DNA from: Escherichia phage LHE71
Sequence record: OP455115
Direction: 5' to 3' (one strand)
Length of the DNA stretch: 50,158 bases
How positions within the stretch are numbered: position 1 is the stretch's first letter; each line of letters begins with the position of its first letter. Positions 3,809 through 48,009 of this stretch are shown here, in pieces. Under the pieces are notes generated by a model. That model did no database searches and had not been told where the DNA came from. It saw only the letters and a program-made list of their open reading frames with translations. The position numbers and the translations under genes are program-made.

Positions 3809-3865
3809 GAGTGATTCCTCGTTTGTTGGTGTAGGGGAATCATAGCGCATTCCCCTTGATAGGTT

Positions 3866-4084
3866 TTAGCAATTCGTGCTATTCGTTTTAATAGTGATGC
3901 AAAAATAATTTTTTAAGCACGTCACCACGCGCGCTGAATCGACTTGTGGAAGCCTTAAAATTTCATGGACCAGTTGCACTGGCGACACCTCAGATTTGTA
4001 GTAGTGTGCGATTCTGGAGGTGTTTGGGCGCATTCCTTCCACTGCGTCGCGTGCTGCATCTTCTGCTGTCATGATAGTAGCCAT
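3866..4084 (-). CDS. Hypothetical protein
   Basis: 72-aa ORF with AAGGGTG SD; its 3' end runs into the palindromic motif. Confidence 0.4.
   Translation of the reverse strand: MATIMTAEDAARDAVEGMRPNTSRIAHYYKSEVSPVQLVHEILRLPQVDSARVVTCLKNYFCITIKTNSTNC
3867..3881. promoter_or_regulatory. Palindromic intergenic motif instance (TAGCAATTCGTGCTA)
   Basis: Inverted repeat; 22 nt to TATGAT on the minus strand, with -10 inside a hairpin loop. Confidence 0.45.
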
Positions 4085-5591: not shown

Positions 5592-5643
5592 TTCCTCTTC
5601 GTTGTTGATATGGCAATCATAGCTGACTACCCGATTTATTGTT

Positions 5644-5658
5644 TAGCAATTCGTGCTA
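5644..5658. promoter_or_regulatory. Palindromic intergenic motif instance (TAGCAATTCGTGCTA)
   Basis: Inverted repeat; 22 nt to TATGAT on the minus strand. Confidence 0.45.
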
Positions 5659-5722
5659 TTTAATAACTTCTTGATGCGATTGCGATAAAACTGCATTATG
5701 TGCTCATTGTGCCAATTGCTCA

Positions 5723-10683: not shown

Positions 10684-10869
10684 ATGAAAACAAAATTAGT
10701 TCATAAATCAGAAATCAAGATCGGCGATACCGTGATTCACAACGGAGAGCTTAAAACTGTTGGCAAGGAGTCAATAACCAACGATGAATTTATGGGTTTG
10801 TTGTTGTTCGGGGACTCCTATCGACTTGGTTACAAAATGGTTGAGCTTGTTGAAGATGTAAAATTCTAA
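10684..10869 (+). CDS. Hypothetical protein
   Basis: 61-aa ORF; KOW-like GDTVIHNGELKTVG pattern. Confidence 0.5.
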   Translation: MKTKLVHKSEIKIGDTVIHNGELKTVGKESITNDEFMGLLLFGDSYRLGYKMVELVEDVKF

Positions 10870-10870
10870 A

Positions 10871-10885
10871 TAGCACTTTTTGCTA
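10871..10885. promoter_or_regulatory. Palindromic motif of promoter module
   Basis: TAGCACTTTTTGCTA, then 22 nt, then CATAGT inside a GGGAG/CTCCC hairpin, then conserved leader. Confidence 0.5.
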
Positions 10886-10944
10886 AACGAAAATGCGGGA
10901 GGGCTGCCATAGTTCTCCCATCAACAGAAAACGAGGCAATCACC

Positions 10945-24174: not shown

Positions 24175-24181
24175 CTATGTT

Positions 24182-24196
24182 TAGCAATTCGTGCTA
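24182..24196. promoter_or_regulatory. Palindromic motif in operator position of tail fibre promoter
   Basis: TAGCAATTCGTGCTA between the predicted -10 and the SD AAGGAG. Confidence 0.45.
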
Positions 24197-24217
24197 TTTA
24201 CTTAAGGAGTTTATACT

Positions 24218-39681: not shown

Positions 39682-39703
39682 GATATTTCTCCTGATTGGT
39701 TAA

Positions 39704-39718
39704 TGGCACTTTTTGTTA
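39704..39718. promoter_or_regulatory. Palindromic motif instance upstream of the chaperone gene
   Basis: TGGCACTTTTTGTTA about 20 nt upstream of the SD. Confidence 0.4.
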
Positions 39719-39754
39719 AAAGATAATAGTGCAAAGTTGATACGATGATTTTAC

Positions 39755-42085: not shown

Positions 42086-42112
42086 AAAAAAAAGGCGCTA
42101 CATGAGCGCCTT
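42086..42112 (-). terminator. Intra-operon terminator/attenuator hairpin
   Basis: Stem AAGGCGCT/AGCGCCTT followed by 8-T run on the minus strand, just upstream of the next SD. Confidence 0.45.
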
Positions 42113-42117
42113 GATGA

Positions 42118-42405
42118 TTAATATTCGCCGCCGTCTTCAAGCTCTTTAACGCTTTTGCTATCCCACGGATCGGGCTTCGTGATTTTTGCCATTTCAGCGC
42201 GGATTTTTCGGTTGGTGGCACTGTCGTCTTTTACTTCGATTTCTTCGCGAGCAATCAAGCAACGCAGCCCAGGCAATTCAAGTACGGATGCCGGGAGTGT
42301 CACCTCTTCATCTGGAAGAACCTTTGCGAATGAGCCATCTTCAAGACGGAACATCTGAAGAGCTACACCAACGTTTACGATAACAACAGTTTTCTCTTTA
42401 GCCAT
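42118..42405 (-). CDS. Hypothetical structural protein
   Basis: 95-aa ORF downstream of the capsid gene. Confidence 0.45.
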   Translation of the reverse strand: MAKEKTVVIVNVGVALQMFRLEDGSFAKVLPDEEVTLPASVLELPGLRCLIAREEIEVKDDSATNRKIRAEMAKITKPDPWDSKSVKELEDGGEY

Positions 42406-42420
42406 TTTGATTTCTCCAAT

Positions 42421-42447
42421 AAAAAAGGGACTAACTAAGTTAGCCCC
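42421..42447 (-). terminator. Terminator/attenuator after major capsid gene
   Basis: Imperfect stem GGGACTAAC/GTTAGCCC followed by 6-T run on the minus strand. Confidence 0.45.
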
Positions 42448-42454
42448 TATAATA

Positions 42455-43414
42455 TTACACGCCAGTGATTAAGACAATAGTCATCGGGCGATAAATTGTA
42501 AGACCAGTACACTTAGAGGTGCAAGGCACTTTAAAGTGAAGGTCTTTCGGCTGCGCTGGCAGCATGTTAAACGCTTCCGGGATCTCGATGGACATATTCA
42601 TCGGATTCTTTTCGTACACCAGCACGCCTTTAGTTCCAGCGCCGTCGATATCTTCAAGCTCTGCGATAGAGTCGATTTCGATACCCGCGTTCTGAGACTT
42701 AAAATAGTCCAGATAAGACATGGTAGTTTCAGGCATACGGATCGCAAGAACCTTACGCATGGACGGCGGAATCAGGATGTTGGTTGCACGATGCTGACCG
42801 CGCGTAATCGTCTCGATGGTTTCGATCGCCTGAGTCAGTTCAGCCTCTGCCGTTTCCGGTTTCTGAGTTGCGCCATCCATCCACTTACCGGAGGTAATTT
42901 TGGTGATGTTCGGATGGTTGAACACGGACACGATCTTGTGCGGCGCAGAACCTTTAAACACCAGGCGGTTAACCAGTTGATCATGAGCTAACTGACACGC
43001 GCTCGCCTTGCGAGTTGACAGCGGACGACCAGTTGCCTGACCTGCTTTGATTTCGTCGATTGAGATCAGAAACGCATTACCCAAACGGAACACTTTGCCG
43101 AACTCAGAAGTACCCAGGGCATCAACAAGCGGCAGGTCGTCGGTGTAGTCAGCGATAATCTGCGCAGTGCCAACCTTATCAAAGGTCATGTATTCGAACG
43201 TCTTGTCAGTAGGAGAAAGATCGGTAGTAACCGGGAATACGCGTAGAGCGGAGCCTACCGGGTAGTCTTCTTCATAGGACTGGCTTTTGATGCGGTGTAG
43301 TTCCTGAGCGGTCCAGATACCCATCGTTGCGGCTGCATCCTGTTTTACGCCAGCCTGGATCAGATACATTTCAACATTGCTTTTATCTGCTTCATCAAAT
43401 TTTTTAGTGGTCAT
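42455..43414 (-). CDS. Major capsid protein
   Basis: 319 aa; SD AAGGAGAAG; position between decoration-like genes and neck genes. Confidence 0.7.
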   Translation of the reverse strand: MTTKKFDEADKSNVEMYLIQAGVKQDAAATMGIWTAQELHRIKSQSYEEDYPVGSALRVFPVTTDLSPTDKTFEYMTFDKVGTAQIIADYTDDLPLVDALGTSEFGKVFRLGNAFLISIDEIKAGQATGRPLSTRKASACQLAHDQLVNRLVFKGSAPHKIVSVFNHPNITKITSGKWMDGATQKPETAEAELTQAIETIETITRGQHRATNILIPPSMRKVLAIRMPETTMSYLDYFKSQNAGIEIDSIAELEDIDGAGTKGVLVYEKNPMNMSIEIPEAFNMLPAQPKDLHFKVPCTSKCTGLTIYRPMTIVLITGV

Positions 43415-43434
43415 GATTACTTCTCCTTAGTTAA

Positions 43435-43462
43435 TAAAAAAGCCGTGATTATGTTCACGGCT
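43435..43462 (-). terminator. Hairpin plus T-run upstream of the capsid gene
   Basis: Stem AGCCGTGA/TCACGGCT, with CATAAT in the loop, followed by TTTTTT on the minus strand. Confidence 0.4.
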
Positions 43463-43469
43463 TCAATAA

Positions 43470-43484
43470 TAGCACTTTTTGTTA
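43470..43484. promoter_or_regulatory. Palindromic motif instance upstream of the capsid gene
   Basis: TAGCACTTTTTGTTA adjacent to the hairpin containing CATAAT. Confidence 0.45.
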
Positions 43485-43505
43485 AAGCGTCAAAGTGTTT
43501 TTATG

Positions 43506-44273
43506 TTATGCATCAACCTCTGGCGTTGGCACCGCTTCCACGCGATAAGCAATTGTTGCCGTCGTCTTACTAGCATCATTAGCCGTCCAGGTGATATTGA
43601 AATCACCGACTGCCTCTTCACCAACAGGGGTTACAAGACCCGAGTCCGGATCGACGGTGGCGATATTGGTAGCGTCGATTGACCACTTGCCAGTCTTATC
43701 AGTTGCATTGGCTGGAAGAACATTAGCCACACACTGGATCGTAACATTGTTTGGCTGAGGACTTTTCTTGTCAGTGGTGATTGTAGCGGATTCAACAAGA
43801 ACGACAGGGGGCGGCGGCGGTGGAACGATGAAAGCATTTTGTTTCACCTGAACCTCAATAAAGTTCCCGTCTTCGTGCTTAACAAAGCCACCCGCAAAGG
43901 TCCAACCAACATAATCATCAACTCCAGTTACTGAGCCTCCAGCGCCAAATTTAAGTTTTGAGAATAGTTCTGGAGCGTCACCAATAGAAGTAAGCGCCCA
44001 CACGCGACCGTGAGAAACGACGTTGCACACTTCACCGTCTAGGATTTTACCGCTCAGGTGTTCATATTGGGAACGGAAAGCGATTCCGTAAGGTGTTGCA
44101 CCATCAGTAAGCGTGGAAACAACCTTAACGCCGTCAACAATACCGACAACTTTAACAGCAGCGCCGAACTCAATATCACCCTGAGCAACACAAGATCCAT
44201 CAATATTGTAGGTTGAAGTATCGGAAATACTGCCAGGACACGCAGGGCGTAACATTAAATTTTCATAAGCCAT
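43506..44273 (-). CDS. Capsid-associated protein with polyproline linker and C-terminal Ig-like (Big_2-like) domain
   Basis: N-terminal 150 aa paralogous to 44334..44810; PPPPPP linker; C-terminal segment matches bacterial Ig-like pattern. Confidence 0.6.
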   Translation of the reverse strand: MAYENLMLRPACPGSISDTSTYNIDGSCVAQGDIEFGAAVKVVGIVDGVKVVSTLTDGATPYGIAFRSQYEHLSGKILDGEVCNVVSHGRVWALTSIGDAPELFSKLKFGAGGSVTGVDDYVGWTFAGGFVKHEDGNFIEVQVKQNAFIVPPPPPPVVLVESATITTDKKSPQPNNVTIQCVANVLPANATDKTGKWSIDATNIATVDPDSGLVTPVGEEAVGDFNITWTANDASKTTATIAYRVEAVPTPEVDA

Positions 44274-44287
44274 AATAATTTCTCCAT

Positions 44288-44317
44288 AAAAAAAGGACCA
44301 TCCAAAAAGGATAGTCC
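44288..44317 (-). terminator. Candidate hairpin plus T-run
   Basis: Imperfect stem GGACCATCC/GGATAGTCC followed by 7-T run on the minus strand. Confidence 0.35.
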
Positions 44318-44333
44318 CAATATTAAACGCTAA

Positions 44334-44810
44334 TTACAGTTGATGCAACTGAACCTCAACAAGCCGAACATCTTTGTATTTAGTCCAACCGCCAGCGTAG
44401 GTCCAGGTTGTTTCGATCGTGCCATCAGATTTCTCTTGACCATCAACATCAAGTTTAACGGCAGAGCCGAAAGTTGGTGCTTCGGTGGATTTGGAAAGCA
44501 TCCATACTCGGCCTGAAGTCATCACGTTAATTGCGCCACCTTCTTCATAAACCATCTGGTTTTGAGCATTAACAGTCTGCCAGTGAGATCGGATTGCCAC
44601 GCCGTAAGGAGTGGTTCCGGTAGAAAGAGCCTTAACCAACTTATGACCATCAACCGCCTGAGCTTGAACAATCTGTACGGCAGCGCCAACAAAAACATCA
44701 CCTTCATTAACGACGCAAGCGCCGTCAATATTGTACTTTGAAGTATCCGCAACCATACCCGGGAGCGCAATCGCCATATCTCGCTGATAAGATGCATTAA
44801 TTTGTGCCAT
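44334..44810 (-). CDS. Capsid-associated protein, paralog of 43506..44273 N-domain
   Basis: Shared motifs DTSKYNIDGACV, TPYGVAIRS, SGRVWML, TWTYAGGW. Confidence 0.55.
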   Translation of the reverse strand: MAQINASYQRDMAIALPGMVADTSKYNIDGACVVNEGDVFVGAAVQIVQAQAVDGHKLVKALSTGTTPYGVAIRSHWQTVNAQNQMVYEEGGAINVMTSGRVWMLSKSTEAPTFGSAVKLDVDGQEKSDGTIETTWTYAGGWTKYKDVRLVEVQLHQL

Positions 44811-44821
44811 GATATTTCCCC

Positions 44822-45934
44822 TTACATTACTTTGCTTAAACGTGAATTTGGCGTAACAGGCGCGGCGTCGTTTTTCTCTTCCGGCTTACCGCCTTCGATA
44901 GAGTCGCCTTTTACTGCTTTACGCTGAATAGCCATGATATCAGAATCTTTAGCAACATCAAACATAGCGTCGATATATGCGTCTGATTTTTTACTAACAT
45001 CTTTATCAAGCATGGCTTTAACTACGGCAATCTTGACGTCTTTGATATCAAGACCATCATGTTTGACGCCTGCTGTTTCTGCTACTGCGGTAACTTCTGC
45101 GCGTGCGGCGGCATCGGCTTTTTGCTTCTCTACCTCGGCCTTAACCAGTTCCGGCAGGGAGTCAACCTTAACCTTCAGCGCATCGCGCTCAGCTTCGAAG
45201 CCATCAGCTTTACCCTGAATGGTGGCAATCTGCGCGGTTAATTTTTCGATATGGTTTGCAACTTCTTCGGTTACTTCCACATCAACTGAGTCGATCTTAA
45301 TTTTTTTCATTTGCTTGTCCTCGTTAGTTAATTGAACGTTATTATCATACGGGAACTCCTGCTCGGCATCAAGATTTAATTTAGCGATTCCCGCACGACC
45401 TTTGAAAACAAGTGCAATATGGTTGACCTTGATATTAGTCTGTACCGCGTCAAATTTCACCCAGCCTTCAGGCGGCGCTTCGTCCTGTTTCATATCCTCT
45501 TCGAAGATATATTCTCCAGTCTCATTTGAACCCCAACCAGGCTTATCAATATCAACCGAAGTATAACCAACAGATAATTCACCTGCTTCTTTTGCTTTAG
45601 CCTTGCTGATCGCGTAGTCGCTGTAAATACTCAAAGGAACTTCAACGCCAACCCCTGAAGCAATACCAGCTCCAGCACACGATCCGACAACAACGTCCTT
45701 AGCATTTTGGGGAGTCACCGTTACGTGACCGACTGTGATCGGCTTTCCTGCAAAACTTTGCAAGGAATCTTGCTTGAAAACTTCGGACGCCGGACGGAAC
45801 TCAACCCGATCGCCGTGAGGAGTTTTGTAAACCTGAGCGCCGATTCGCGCCACGATTGGGCGGTCAACTAAAAAACCGTTATCATCAAAGTGCGCCTTGA
45901 TTTTTACTGAATCGAATCTTTGCTTTGCCTTCAT
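44822..45934 (-). CDS. Prohead protease/scaffolding protein candidate
   Basis: Start at MKAKQRF with SD AGGAGA; globular N-terminal domain and coiled-coil C-terminal half. Confidence 0.5.
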   Translation of the reverse strand: MKAKQRFDSVKIKAHFDDNGFLVDRPIVARIGAQVYKTPHGDRVEFRPASEVFKQDSLQSFAGKPITVGHVTVTPQNAKDVVVGSCAGAGIASGVGVEVPLSIYSDYAISKAKAKEAGELSVGYTSVDIDKPGWGSNETGEYIFEEDMKQDEAPPEGWVKFDAVQTNIKVNHIALVFKGRAGIAKLNLDAEQEFPYDNNVQLTNEDKQMKKIKIDSVDVEVTEEVANHIEKLTAQIATIQGKADGFEAERDALKVKVDSLPELVKAEVEKQKADAAARAEVTAVAETAGVKHDGLDIKDVKIAVVKAMLDKDVSKKSDAYIDAMFDVAKDSDIMAIQRKAVKGDSIEGGKPEEKNDAAPVTPNSRLSKVM

Positions 45935-45936
45935 TT

Positions 45937-46698
45937 TTAATCTCCTGTAGAAAAGTCTGGAACAGCCCAACAGCGGCAATTGTATTCCTCACCCGGGAAT
46001 ACATGATCGGAATCTACCGCTATGCGCTTACCTTCCCATCTTACATGTTTTTCACGTTCGCGTAAATCCATCACCCCGCGCCAGAAATAGTAAGATACAC
46101 CAGCGTCTTTTATGCGCTGCCGCATCAGTCTACTGTTCCATGTTCCGACAATTCCCGACGCTCTATTTTTGGCCCAGCTACGGTAAATACCAAATCGCTC
46201 CTTAGCAAGTTCAACAACAAAATCCTTGCTTTTACCCTGACCGGATGCCGCACGAAGTTTATCAGTGAAATCAGTAACCATGTTGGCGGCAAATTTCCTG
46301 ATAGAAGTAGTCACCTGCGATCGCCACAGATTATATTGTCCTGAGTACCAGTTTTCGGCAGCGGTAGGACCAATCAGGGCTAGTAGCATCACGGCTTGAT
46401 TCTTCTTACCTCCAGCATTGCGAGCGATGCGCAGCCACTGCTTAGAGTTGAATTTATAGATCGCGAGCGCAACGGATGATAGAGAACCAATAATCGGAGC
46501 GATGAGTGATTCGACGTAATCAAGCAATGACCTTTCTGTCTGATCTATCTCTTCGTCAGTAGCGTCAAATTTCATCGGCTTTAATTCGTCACGCATTTTT
46601 TCAGTTAGTTTGGCTGCAACATCCTGTAGGGAGCGCGACATTGCGCGCTCGCTCATTTCAGGATAGCGCCACTGTGTTGCAACGCCATTAATTTTCAT
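45937..46698 (-). CDS. Head morphogenesis protein (Mu F-like)
   Basis: 253 aa; C-terminal W..GKRI...VFPGEEYNCRCW segment typical of Mu F / SPP1 gp7. Confidence 0.6.
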   Translation of the reverse strand: MKINGVATQWRYPEMSERAMSRSLQDVAAKLTEKMRDELKPMKFDATDEEIDQTERSLLDYVESLIAPIIGSLSSVALAIYKFNSKQWLRIARNAGGKKNQAVMLLALIGPTAAENWYSGQYNLWRSQVTTSIRKFAANMVTDFTDKLRAASGQGKSKDFVVELAKERFGIYRSWAKNRASGIVGTWNSRLMRQRIKDAGVSYYFWRGVMDLREREKHVRWEGKRIAVDSDHVFPGEEYNCRCWAVPDFSTGD

Positions 46699-47971
46699 CT
46701 TCTAACTTCTCCCCTAACCCCGGTTCCGGCTCAGTTGTTTCTTCCGGTTCGCGAATGTTGATGTTATTGCCATCCTTGAGTTTGAACTCAGGGGCAATAG
46801 ATCGCAAAGTGTCGCGAGCTTCTTCCAGATCGATGATTTGCTCAGTGATAGCCTTCGTGACTGACTCAACGTTATTCTTCGTGATCTCTGATTCCTCTTT
46901 CTTGCTCGGAACAGACAAAGGCTCAAACTCGATCGACCACTCTTCCTCATCAACAATGAACGGCAACAAGAACTCAAGAAGCGGCCTGTAATCTTCCTCG
47001 CGCTTGCGATCGACTAGCTTATAGAAAGTCTCAAGCGCTGTGTTTTGGCTCGCTGATACGCCGCCTACGTTCTTATTCTTGATGATAATCTCATGAATCC
47101 CGGATAGGGAGACGATGCGGTCCATCTTGCTTGACAAGAACTCAGGAACTCCGCTGATATCAGAGTTTAGAACGTCGTATTCTTCCGTCTCAGCATCGAT
47201 ACCGATCGCACGGCCTACGCCGGAGTTATCATCAACCTGAGCAAGTCGCAGGCGCGCGGCATACTGAGCATTATCATCATCACACATTTCAACAAGACCT
47301 TTGACCTTCCATACAGCCTGTTGCTTACGTCGCAAGATCTGAGTAGCCAGAGATTCACAGTAATCATAGTCACAGATTGCATCAATCAGTGACTTGTTCA
47401 ATACCGAAGCTCCCCATCCTTGATTCTGCTTTCTTGCCTGTTGCGTTACTCTTTCACCATCAGCAATAAAGACTCTTGAGTGATGAATCAGATACGGCTG
47501 CATATTGTCGCCAGGGGATACCTTGTAAATTTCAGGCTCACCATAGCGAGGGGATCTTGCATTGGTGACTCGCTTTTCAACAGAGATAGCAAATCGATCG
47601 TAAACTCGGACGCCTTCAAGTTTAGCTCCAGGTTTTGCCTGACTGGTTAACATCCTGTTGTCTTTGATGATTGCCACCATCGCCGCGCCGCCGTAAAGTC
47701 GTGCCCAACAAAGAAGATCCACCAGACTTGAATCAAGTTTGTAGCTATCCCATAAAGACTTGAACTCTTTTTCATCCTTAACGCCTGACATTTTAAAACC
47801 AGCCGTCACCATCTCTTCCGGGATAACATCCACAATTCGCTTCGCGGTTGCGTTGTCGTTGTAGAAAGAACCGACGTGATATGATGCATCAGACATAAAG
47901 AATGGCTTAGGCGAACCGTCCGCGCCGCCGTTAAAGATATCGTTATAGCCATCATGCTTAACAATTTTCAT
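46688..47971 (-). CDS. Portal protein
   Basis: Start at MKIVKHDG with SD GGAGGAAAC; size and position after terminase. Confidence 0.7.
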   Translation of the reverse strand: MKIVKHDGYNDIFNGGADGSPKPFFMSDASYHVGSFYNDNATAKRIVDVIPEEMVTAGFKMSGVKDEKEFKSLWDSYKLDSSLVDLLCWARLYGGAAMVAIIKDNRMLTSQAKPGAKLEGVRVYDRFAISVEKRVTNARSPRYGEPEIYKVSPGDNMQPYLIHHSRVFIADGERVTQQARKQNQGWGASVLNKSLIDAICDYDYCESLATQILRRKQQAVWKVKGLVEMCDDDNAQYAARLRLAQVDDNSGVGRAIGIDAETEEYDVLNSDISGVPEFLSSKMDRIVSLSGIHEIIIKNKNVGGVSASQNTALETFYKLVDRKREEDYRPLLEFLLPFIVDEEEWSIEFEPLSVPSKKEESEITKNNVESVTKAITEQIIDLEEARDTLRSIAPEFKLKDGNNINIREPEETTEPEPGLGEKLEDEN

Positions 47972-47983
47972 GTTTCCTCCAAT

Positions 47984-48009
47984 AAAAAGGGCCGTCAATT
48001 GACAGCCCT
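47984..48009 (-). terminator. Hairpin plus T-run between terminase and portal genes
   Basis: Stem GGGCCGTCAA/TTGACAGCCC followed by 5-T run on the minus strand. Confidence 0.4.

Follow-up and report, generated by a model that had tools for sequence, protein, structure and literature searches.

Two adjacent genes in the genome of Escherichia phage LHE71 encode proteins that resemble each other, the second being extended by a run of prolines and an immunoglobulin (Ig)-like domain. An initial annotation, made from the letters alone, took them for tandem capsid-associated paralogs that build a mixed decoration lattice on the phage head. The locus raises the question of what these two proteins are, where each of them would sit on the head, and what the domain carried by only one of them would do there. 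We consider it very probable that they are the paired capsid cement proteins of a T1-like siphophage, an overall best explanation that includes their placement on the head, attenuation of the second gene and an adhesive role of the Ig-like domain. LHE71 is known from its genes alone, and all structural statements made here about its capsid are transferred from phages T1 and FCWL1. The window analyzed is the whole stretch of 50,158 nucleotides (nt) of sequence record OP455115.

Gene pair and domain architecture

Two minus-strand ORFs fill positions 43506-44810 exactly. The first to be transcribed (44334..44810, minus strand) has an ATG start and encodes a short cement (decoration) protein of 158 amino acids (aa), the ortholog of T1 gp49 (CPTT1_029). 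It is followed after 60 nt by a second gene with an ATG start (43506..44273, minus strand), which encodes a long cement paralog of 255 aa, the ortholog of T1 gp48 (CPTT1_030). Both genes are intact and each has an RBS. The initial annotation, which gave no strand, had called the extended gene the downstream copy, and this is correct along minus-strand transcription.

Pairwise BLASTP between the two proteins gave 60 identities over 147 aligned positions (41%, E 3e-32), a similarity far above chance that agrees with the motifs over about 150 aa which the adjacent genes had been said to share. Both proteins matched the Pfam family PF22758 (Phage_cement), the short one with 104.8 bits and the long one with 63.3 bits (cut-off 27), and both also matched PF23982 (XM1 gp53) well over its cut-off; the short protein was in addition a match to phrog_1989. 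In the long paralog, the cement (beta-tulip) domain occupies residues 1-146 (43836..44273, minus strand), with the PF22758 match at residues 8-143. A hexaproline linker, PPPPPP, was read from the sequence at residues 151-156 (43806..43823, minus strand), and a Big_2 bacterial Ig-like domain follows at residues 163-240 (43554..43787, minus strand; PF02368, 36 bits, E 6.8e-9, cut-off 22.8). The proline run and the C-terminal Big_2 domain that the initial annotation had described as additions to this copy were thus both recovered. Both genes belong to the Phage_cement family and, more narrowly, are the orthologs of T1 gp49 and gp48.

Joining of the two ORFs by a frameshift or by readthrough was considered and rejected, as the 60-nt gap holds a stop codon, a hairpin and an RBS. 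A phmmer search with residues 151-255 of the long protein, run against every ORF of 60 aa or more in the six frames of the genome, found no source or further copy of the Ig domain better than E ~1, the major tail protein included. The LHE71 genome contains no third cement paralog and no other Ig-like or cement-like ORF, and tRNA and Rfam scans of the whole window gave no matches.

Position within the head gene module

The pair lies within a head gene module that runs on the minus strand in the order portal, Mu-F-like protein, protease/scaffold, short cement, long cement and major capsid protein (MCP), followed by the head-tail connector genes. Upstream of the pair are the portal gene (46688-47998; PF06381), the gene for the Mu-F-like head morphogenesis protein (45937-46698) and the prohead protease/scaffold gene (44822-45979; DUF2213, phrog_530), all on the minus strand. 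The MCP gene (42455..43414, minus strand; HK97 fold; PF09950, 211 bits; phrog_264) lies downstream of it, and its product is 98% identical to T1 gp47. The location of the pair between the protease/scaffold and MCP genes bears out the association with the capsid that had been claimed for both.

In the program-made ORF list, upstream TTG codons serve as starts of the protease/scaffold gene (385 aa) and the portal gene (436 aa). In T1 the two genes are annotated from internal ATG codons and measure 1113 nt and 1284 nt, respectively, which would correspond to starts at about 45934 and about 47971 here. Between the capsid and head-tail connector genes is a gene of unknown function that encodes 95 aa (42118-42405, minus strand; phrog_2716) and is equivalent to T1 Orf46; it is flanked by terminator-like hairpins at 42426-42448 and 42092-42112.

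Orthologs in phage T1 and solved capsids

When positions 42400-46000 were used as a megablast query, T1 matched at 93.5% nucleotide identity with unchanged gene order, and 56 phage records covered at least 80% of the query. Both halves of the LHE71 genome match Tunavirus genomes at about 91-92.5%, and on these comparisons LHE71 is a T1-like siphophage (Tunavirus). The short protein has 96% aa identity to gp49 and the long protein 89% to gp48. LHE71 and T1 share the order protease, short cement, terminator, long cement, promoter/terminator and MCP, the protein lengths of 158 and 255 aa, and the PPPPPP linker with its Big_2 domain in the long protein. The only difference is sequence divergence, and in the long copy this is greater for the cement domain (~86% identity) than for the Ig part. 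The T1 record AY216660 names CPTT1_029 a 'capsid decoration protein' and CPTT1_030 an 'IgG-domain-containing decoration protein', and several database records label both genes 'hypothetical protein'.

Searches of the PDB matched the 158-aa protein to chain 9kmg_a (E 1e-100), whose sequence is present in entries 9KMG, 9KMH and 9KZJ. The 255-aa protein matched 9kzj_H ('BIG2 domain-containing protein', T1 capsid; E 1e-152) and 9kmh_ak ('Decoration protein gp29', FCWL1 portal vertex; E 2e-149). In FCWL1, a T1-like phage, the sequence of the 158-aa protein is the same as that of T1, and the 255-aa gp29 matches the LHE71 long protein. A full-text search on 9KMG, 9KMH and 9KZJ had the T1 paper as its sole relevant result, and the papers that cite the FCWL1 structure study (Cai et al. 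2025) are silent on decoration proteins.

In the T1 paper, cryo-EM of the T=7 head revealed 80 homotrimers of gp49 and 60 heterotrimers composed of one gp48 and two gp49 (PMC11945409). Both proteins have a beta-tulip fold, and the N-terminus of gp49 extends to the inner surface of the shell while gp48 is external only (PMC11945409). In the icosahedral map at 3.5 Å, residues 2-153 of gp48 could be built as a chain of their own, different from gp49; residues 154-255, a weak and flexible protrusion, were modeled with AlphaFold3 (PMC11945409). According to the legend of Figure 2A, each hexon is ringed by six trimers, four of them homotrimers and two heterotrimers (PMC11945409). Regarding the protrusion, the T1 authors state that it 'may assist T1 adsorption', which is speculation only (PMC11945409).

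The mixed decoration lattice proposed in the initial annotation is supported, with one refinement. A duplicated base with and without the display domain is what cryo-EM found for the T1 orthologs, and both products, rather than one or neither, are located on the T1 capsid. The two forms do not make up separate decoration populations and instead co-assemble within one trimer. The mixed cement lattice has already been published for T1, and the arrangement is known and solved in two T1-like phages.

Predicted structure of the long protein

Structure prediction, which the initial annotation had named as a check, gave a cement beta-domain, a linker and an Ig sandwich. The AlphaFold2 (AF2) model of the 255-aa protein was built from an alignment of 41 sequences and has a mean pLDDT of 86.8, with about 95 in the Ig domain and a drop to about 71-74 in the linker. 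Residues 1-8 are disordered in the model and are followed by an all-beta domain that extends to residue ~143, the low-confidence linker, and a beta-sandwich in which an Ig-like fold of seven strands spans residues 162-246.

Foldseek comparison of the model with the PDB returned T1 gp48 (9kzj_H, TM 0.87 on target) and FCWL1 gp29 (9kmh_ak, TM 0.90), and it also returned short cement proteins. More remote matches were the Pam3 cement protein (8hdt_G, E 3.7e-4), the base of phi29 gp8.5 and the decoration proteins of Borrelia phage BB1. The predicted beta-tulip cement fold of the long paralog superposes on these solved cement proteins. For the C-terminal domain, the Foldseek matches were 7quz, the Big_2-CBM56 structure from a Paenibacillus glucanase, with an rmsd of 2.2-2.4 Å, and Ig-like domains in the tail tube proteins of T5 and DT57C. 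The fold of the short paralog was assigned through its 96% identity to the solved T1 gp49.

Evolutionary history of the pair

A tblastn search with the long protein identified 833 phage records with a cement homolog, 178 of which cover at least 80% of the query, that is, have the extended form. Pairs of a short and a long copy were found in Tunavirus (T1 and LHE71), in Sertoctavirus BrunoManser, in Warwickvirus JLBYU16 (Tempevirinae) and in Klebsiella phage K50_evo11. The second cement gene bears an Ig-like C-terminal extension in T1, BrunoManser and JLBYU16, as it does in LHE71. The long copy of K50_evo11 (268 aa) has a C-terminal extension similar in length, in which Pfam called no Big_2 domain. 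Webervirus KP36 has one cement gene of 173 aa, located directly ahead of the capsid gene. Metagenome orthologs of ~255 aa have a single Ig domain as their C-terminal module, and those of 336-346 aa have two. A polyproline linker is confined to Tunavirus-type proteins, where it is conserved, and other genera use other short linkers.

Between genera of the Drexlerviridae, short copies are 51-67% identical and group together, and long copies are only 30-42% identical, both among themselves and to the short copies. The table of identities is firmer evidence here than our cement tree, which is a simple neighbor-joining sketch. The pattern suggests that a single ancient duplication took place and that the long copy has since diverged much faster than the short one. 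Recent or repeated duplication and gene conversion were also considered and were rejected, since the short copies group across genera (51-67%) and are no closer to the long copy of their own genome (31-42%). Measured against T1, dN/dS is 0.17 for the short protein, 0.15 for the long protein and 0.11 for the linker-plus-Ig part of the latter, indicative of purifying selection.

Two further observations concern individual genomes. Synonymous divergence from T1 is about 0.12 in the genes for the protease and the short cement protein and about 0.42 in those for the long cement and capsid proteins. The jump falls at ~44274-44333 and suggests recombination, with a breakpoint in or close to the terminator between the two cement genes. 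In Shigella phage vB_SsoS_008, the ortholog of the long protein loses similarity in the middle of the Ig domain and continues in unrelated sequence to its end. The reading frame looks shifted, whether by an error in sequencing or by a genuine truncation, and the ortholog may be a naturally occurring form without the Ig domain.

Transcription signals and a dispersed repeat

The gap between the paralogs contains an intrinsic-terminator-like hairpin with a T-run (44284..44318, minus strand; 10-bp stem at 44318-44294, T7 tail), and the RBS of the long gene, GGAGA (44285-44281), directly follows it. The hairpin has a predicted RNA folding energy of -17 kcal/mol (z -3.7). It is conserved in T1 and BrunoManser and is annotated in T1 record AY216660 as a rho-independent terminator between the cement genes; JLBYU16 and K50_evo11 have hairpins of unrelated sequence in the same intergenic gap. 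A terminator-like hairpin separates the paralogs in each of the four lineages covered. As a leaky terminator, the conserved hairpin would cut transcription into the long gene and help to set a ratio of about 6:1 between the short and long proteins. Such attenuation is probably at work, and it is consistent with the 6:1 stoichiometry. Terminator-like hairpins are frequent between late genes in T1-like phages, and the intergenic hairpin may not be specific to stoichiometry control. Alternatively, the short:long ratio could be set by translation efficiency or by assembly specificity.

Ahead of the MCP gene is a sigma-70-like promoter-like site with an extended -10 element (TTGACG-16-TGcTATTAT; 43493-43466, minus strand), and this is followed by a second hairpin with a T-run (43464-43439, minus strand). 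AY216660 likewise annotates a promoter and a terminator between the long gene and the MCP gene, at the position equivalent to 43439-43493. A transcript from the site at 43466-43493 is predicted to start within the 5' arm of the following hairpin. It is a matter of speculation that the hairpin at 43439-43464 could halt transcripts arriving from upstream yet spare those newly initiated.

A dispersed repeat of 19-21 nt, TTTAGCAAnnnGTGCTATT, has 27 matches genome-wide with at most three mismatches, compared with 0.7 expected by chance. Examples of its copies are found at 1848-1866, 3865-3883, 5642-5660, 10869-10887, 24180-24198, 39702-39720 and 43468-43486. TTTAGCAAnnnGTGCTATT is the reverse complement of 'aaATAGCACnnnTTGnTAAAA', an unexplained intergenic repeat of phage TLS (PMC11447400). 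Most copies are oriented with local transcription, as in TLS, when orientation is read off the ORF strands. Two copies, those ahead of the genes for the major capsid protein and the major tail protein, are inverted; the first of these coincides with the promoter-like site at 43466-43493.

Proposed assembly on the head

On the basis of the T1 homology, the short protein of LHE71 would form beta-tulip trimers wherever the T=7 HK97-fold shell has a threefold or quasi-threefold position. These trimers would clamp adjacent capsomers, and the N-terminal arm of the protein would be inserted toward the inner surface of the shell. The long paralog would take the place of one subunit per trimer at one class of 60 quasi-threefold sites, so that a head would carry about 360 short and about 60 long subunits. 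Its cement domain would lie on the outer surface, and the proline-rich linker would project the Big_2 domain off the shell.

Counting from the published figure legend, the sites of the long paralog would adjoin the fivefold vertices. A hexon of a T=7 shell contacts two penton-adjacent trimer sites, one at an icosahedral threefold axis and three other quasi-threefold sites, and because the two heterotrimers per hexon equal the number of penton-adjacent sites, we infer that the heterotrimers are penton-adjacent. Such vertex-proximal placement of the long copy agrees with the five long-protein chains in the FCWL1 portal-vertex model 9KMH. Each vertex would be ringed by up to five flexible Ig domains.

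Role of the Ig-like domain

The initial annotation had linked Ig-like domains displayed on phage particles with weak adhesion to carbohydrates or mucus. Clues to the exposure of the Ig domain are the weak protruding density in T1 (PMC11945409) and the linker that AF2 predicts in the LHE71 protein. We infer an adhesive role, in which the domain would most likely bind a glycan of the cell surface or of the environment in a weak, multivalent and reversible manner. Binding of this kind would help the phage to find its host and would be dispensable for capsid integrity. Data on binding to mucin, glycans or host surfaces were found neither in PMC11945409 nor in the literature searched.

It has to be weighed whether the long paralog is instead a structural specialization for vertex-adjacent sites, with a non-adhesive Ig domain that is a passenger, a stabilizer or an aid to assembly through vertex marking or steric shaping. 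In comparison with T1, the cement domain of the long copy has diverged more than the Ig domain (dN 0.089 vs 0.025), as such a specialization would have it, although the Ig domain is itself under purifying selection (dN/dS 0.11). Webervirus KP36, with its one cement gene, is without an Ig-bearing copy, but the domain has been kept in several genera and is doubled to two domains in some orthologs. The T1 authors offer adsorption as a possibility only (PMC11945409); a flexible linker leading off the shell is nevertheless the layout expected of a binding module and not of a lattice contact. Taken together, we regard a non-adhesive domain as rather unlikely and prefer an adhesive display domain.

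Occupancy of the vertices

T1 and FCWL1 differ in how the long protein was deposited. In T1 entry 9KZJ, it is part of the icosahedral asymmetric unit, whereas FCWL1 gp29 was deposited only in the portal-vertex model 9KMH, as five chains, and the icosahedral FCWL1 entry 9KMG has the 158-aa sequence and no 255-aa chain. The distribution in FCWL1 may differ from that in T1, and the contrast may reflect either a real difference in occupancy or a modeling choice only. Occupancy of the long protein at the eleven penton vertices could vary between phages or between studies.

The FCWL1 entries would also fit a long paralog that is restricted to the portal vertex, at about five copies per virion, as part of the head-tail junction and with no capsid-wide mixed lattice. 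This is improbable in view of the T1 data, as residues 2-153 of gp48 were built from the 3.5 Å icosahedral map and 60 heterotrimers reported, and an occupancy of one-twelfth would not give such density. Moreover, five copies at the portal vertex are equally a prediction of the vertex-adjacent model, which we retain. That one product alone enters the virion, the other being a non-structural paralog or a decaying duplicate, is scarcely credible: nothing was found in its support, some records calling both genes 'hypothetical protein', both orthologs are modeled in capsid maps, which already refutes it for T1, and both genes are intact, RBS-bearing, under purifying selection and kept across genera.

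Comparison with other decoration systems

The LHE71 proteins pass the family cut-offs of PF22758, which includes gp24 of Pseudomonas phage E217 and gp6 of cyanophage Pam3 (PDB 8HDT), and of the XM1 gp53 family (PF23982), and they share with PF22758 members the location of their genes in the head module near the MCP gene. An Ig extension is absent from the solved cement chain of Pam3 (166 aa) and from the single cement protein of KP36 (173 aa). In the T1 lineage the cement protein has been duplicated, and the two copies assemble together. Lambda gpD and TW1 gp56 are likewise trimeric cement proteins, bound at the threefold and quasi-threefold sites of T=7 capsids with the HK97 fold. The T1 authors call the T1 cement fold analogous to those of gpD and gp56 (PMC11945409), and annotation AY216660 cites an HHpred match to the TW1 structure 5WK1. 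The N-terminus of T1 gp49 lies at the inner surface of the shell, unlike that of lambda gpD (PMC11945409). Lambda gpD also differs in forming homotrimers only and in being without an Ig module, and no sequence-level match to the LHE71 proteins was found here for gpD or for TW1 gp56.

The head fiber protein gp8.5 of phi29 (PDB 6QYY and 6QVK) is a further partial likeness, as its base matches the cement domain (Foldseek E 8e-4, TM ~0.66 on target), so that here too a cement-like base has an outward extension. The extension of gp8.5 is a trimeric coiled fiber and not an Ig domain, and identity is about 12%.

T4 Hoc and T5 pb10 bear an Ig-like domain on a flexible tether at the capsid exterior and are presumed to mediate weak adhesion, as in the 'adherence to mucus' idea. 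Both sit at hexamer centers through unrelated anchor domains and are not cement-protein paralogs. The anchor of the T1 type is, in contrast, a duplicate of the cement protein that occupies one seat in the trimer. For Ig-like capsid decoration, the T1 paper cites T5 and crAss001 (PMC11945409). The pair appears to resemble, in functional terms, a trimeric cement of the gpD and gp56 kind combined with Hoc/pb10-like Ig display, by way of cement-protein duplication.

Implications

As a discovery the pair carries little weight, since the arrangement is present in the T1 genome annotation and in cryo-EM of two T1-like phages. The LHE71 genes can be annotated with confidence, the first as a short cement protein and the second as its Ig-bearing paralog. 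It is a tentative and somewhat doubtful extension of this to view the long paralog as a stoichiometry-tuned, fast-evolving adhesin, in which an old duplication in the Drexlerviridae would have yielded a conserved structural copy and a fast-diverging, vertex-specific copy. The display module of the latter, with its one or two Ig domains and its various linkers, would be matched to the surface of the host or habitat, and its dose would be held to about one in seven cement subunits by a leaky terminator that is conserved in position. The long paralog would represent a display position that occurs in nature and is tolerated, at about 60 copies, each with its flexible proline linker, and this position may be usable for phage display or for adhesion engineering in T1-like phages.
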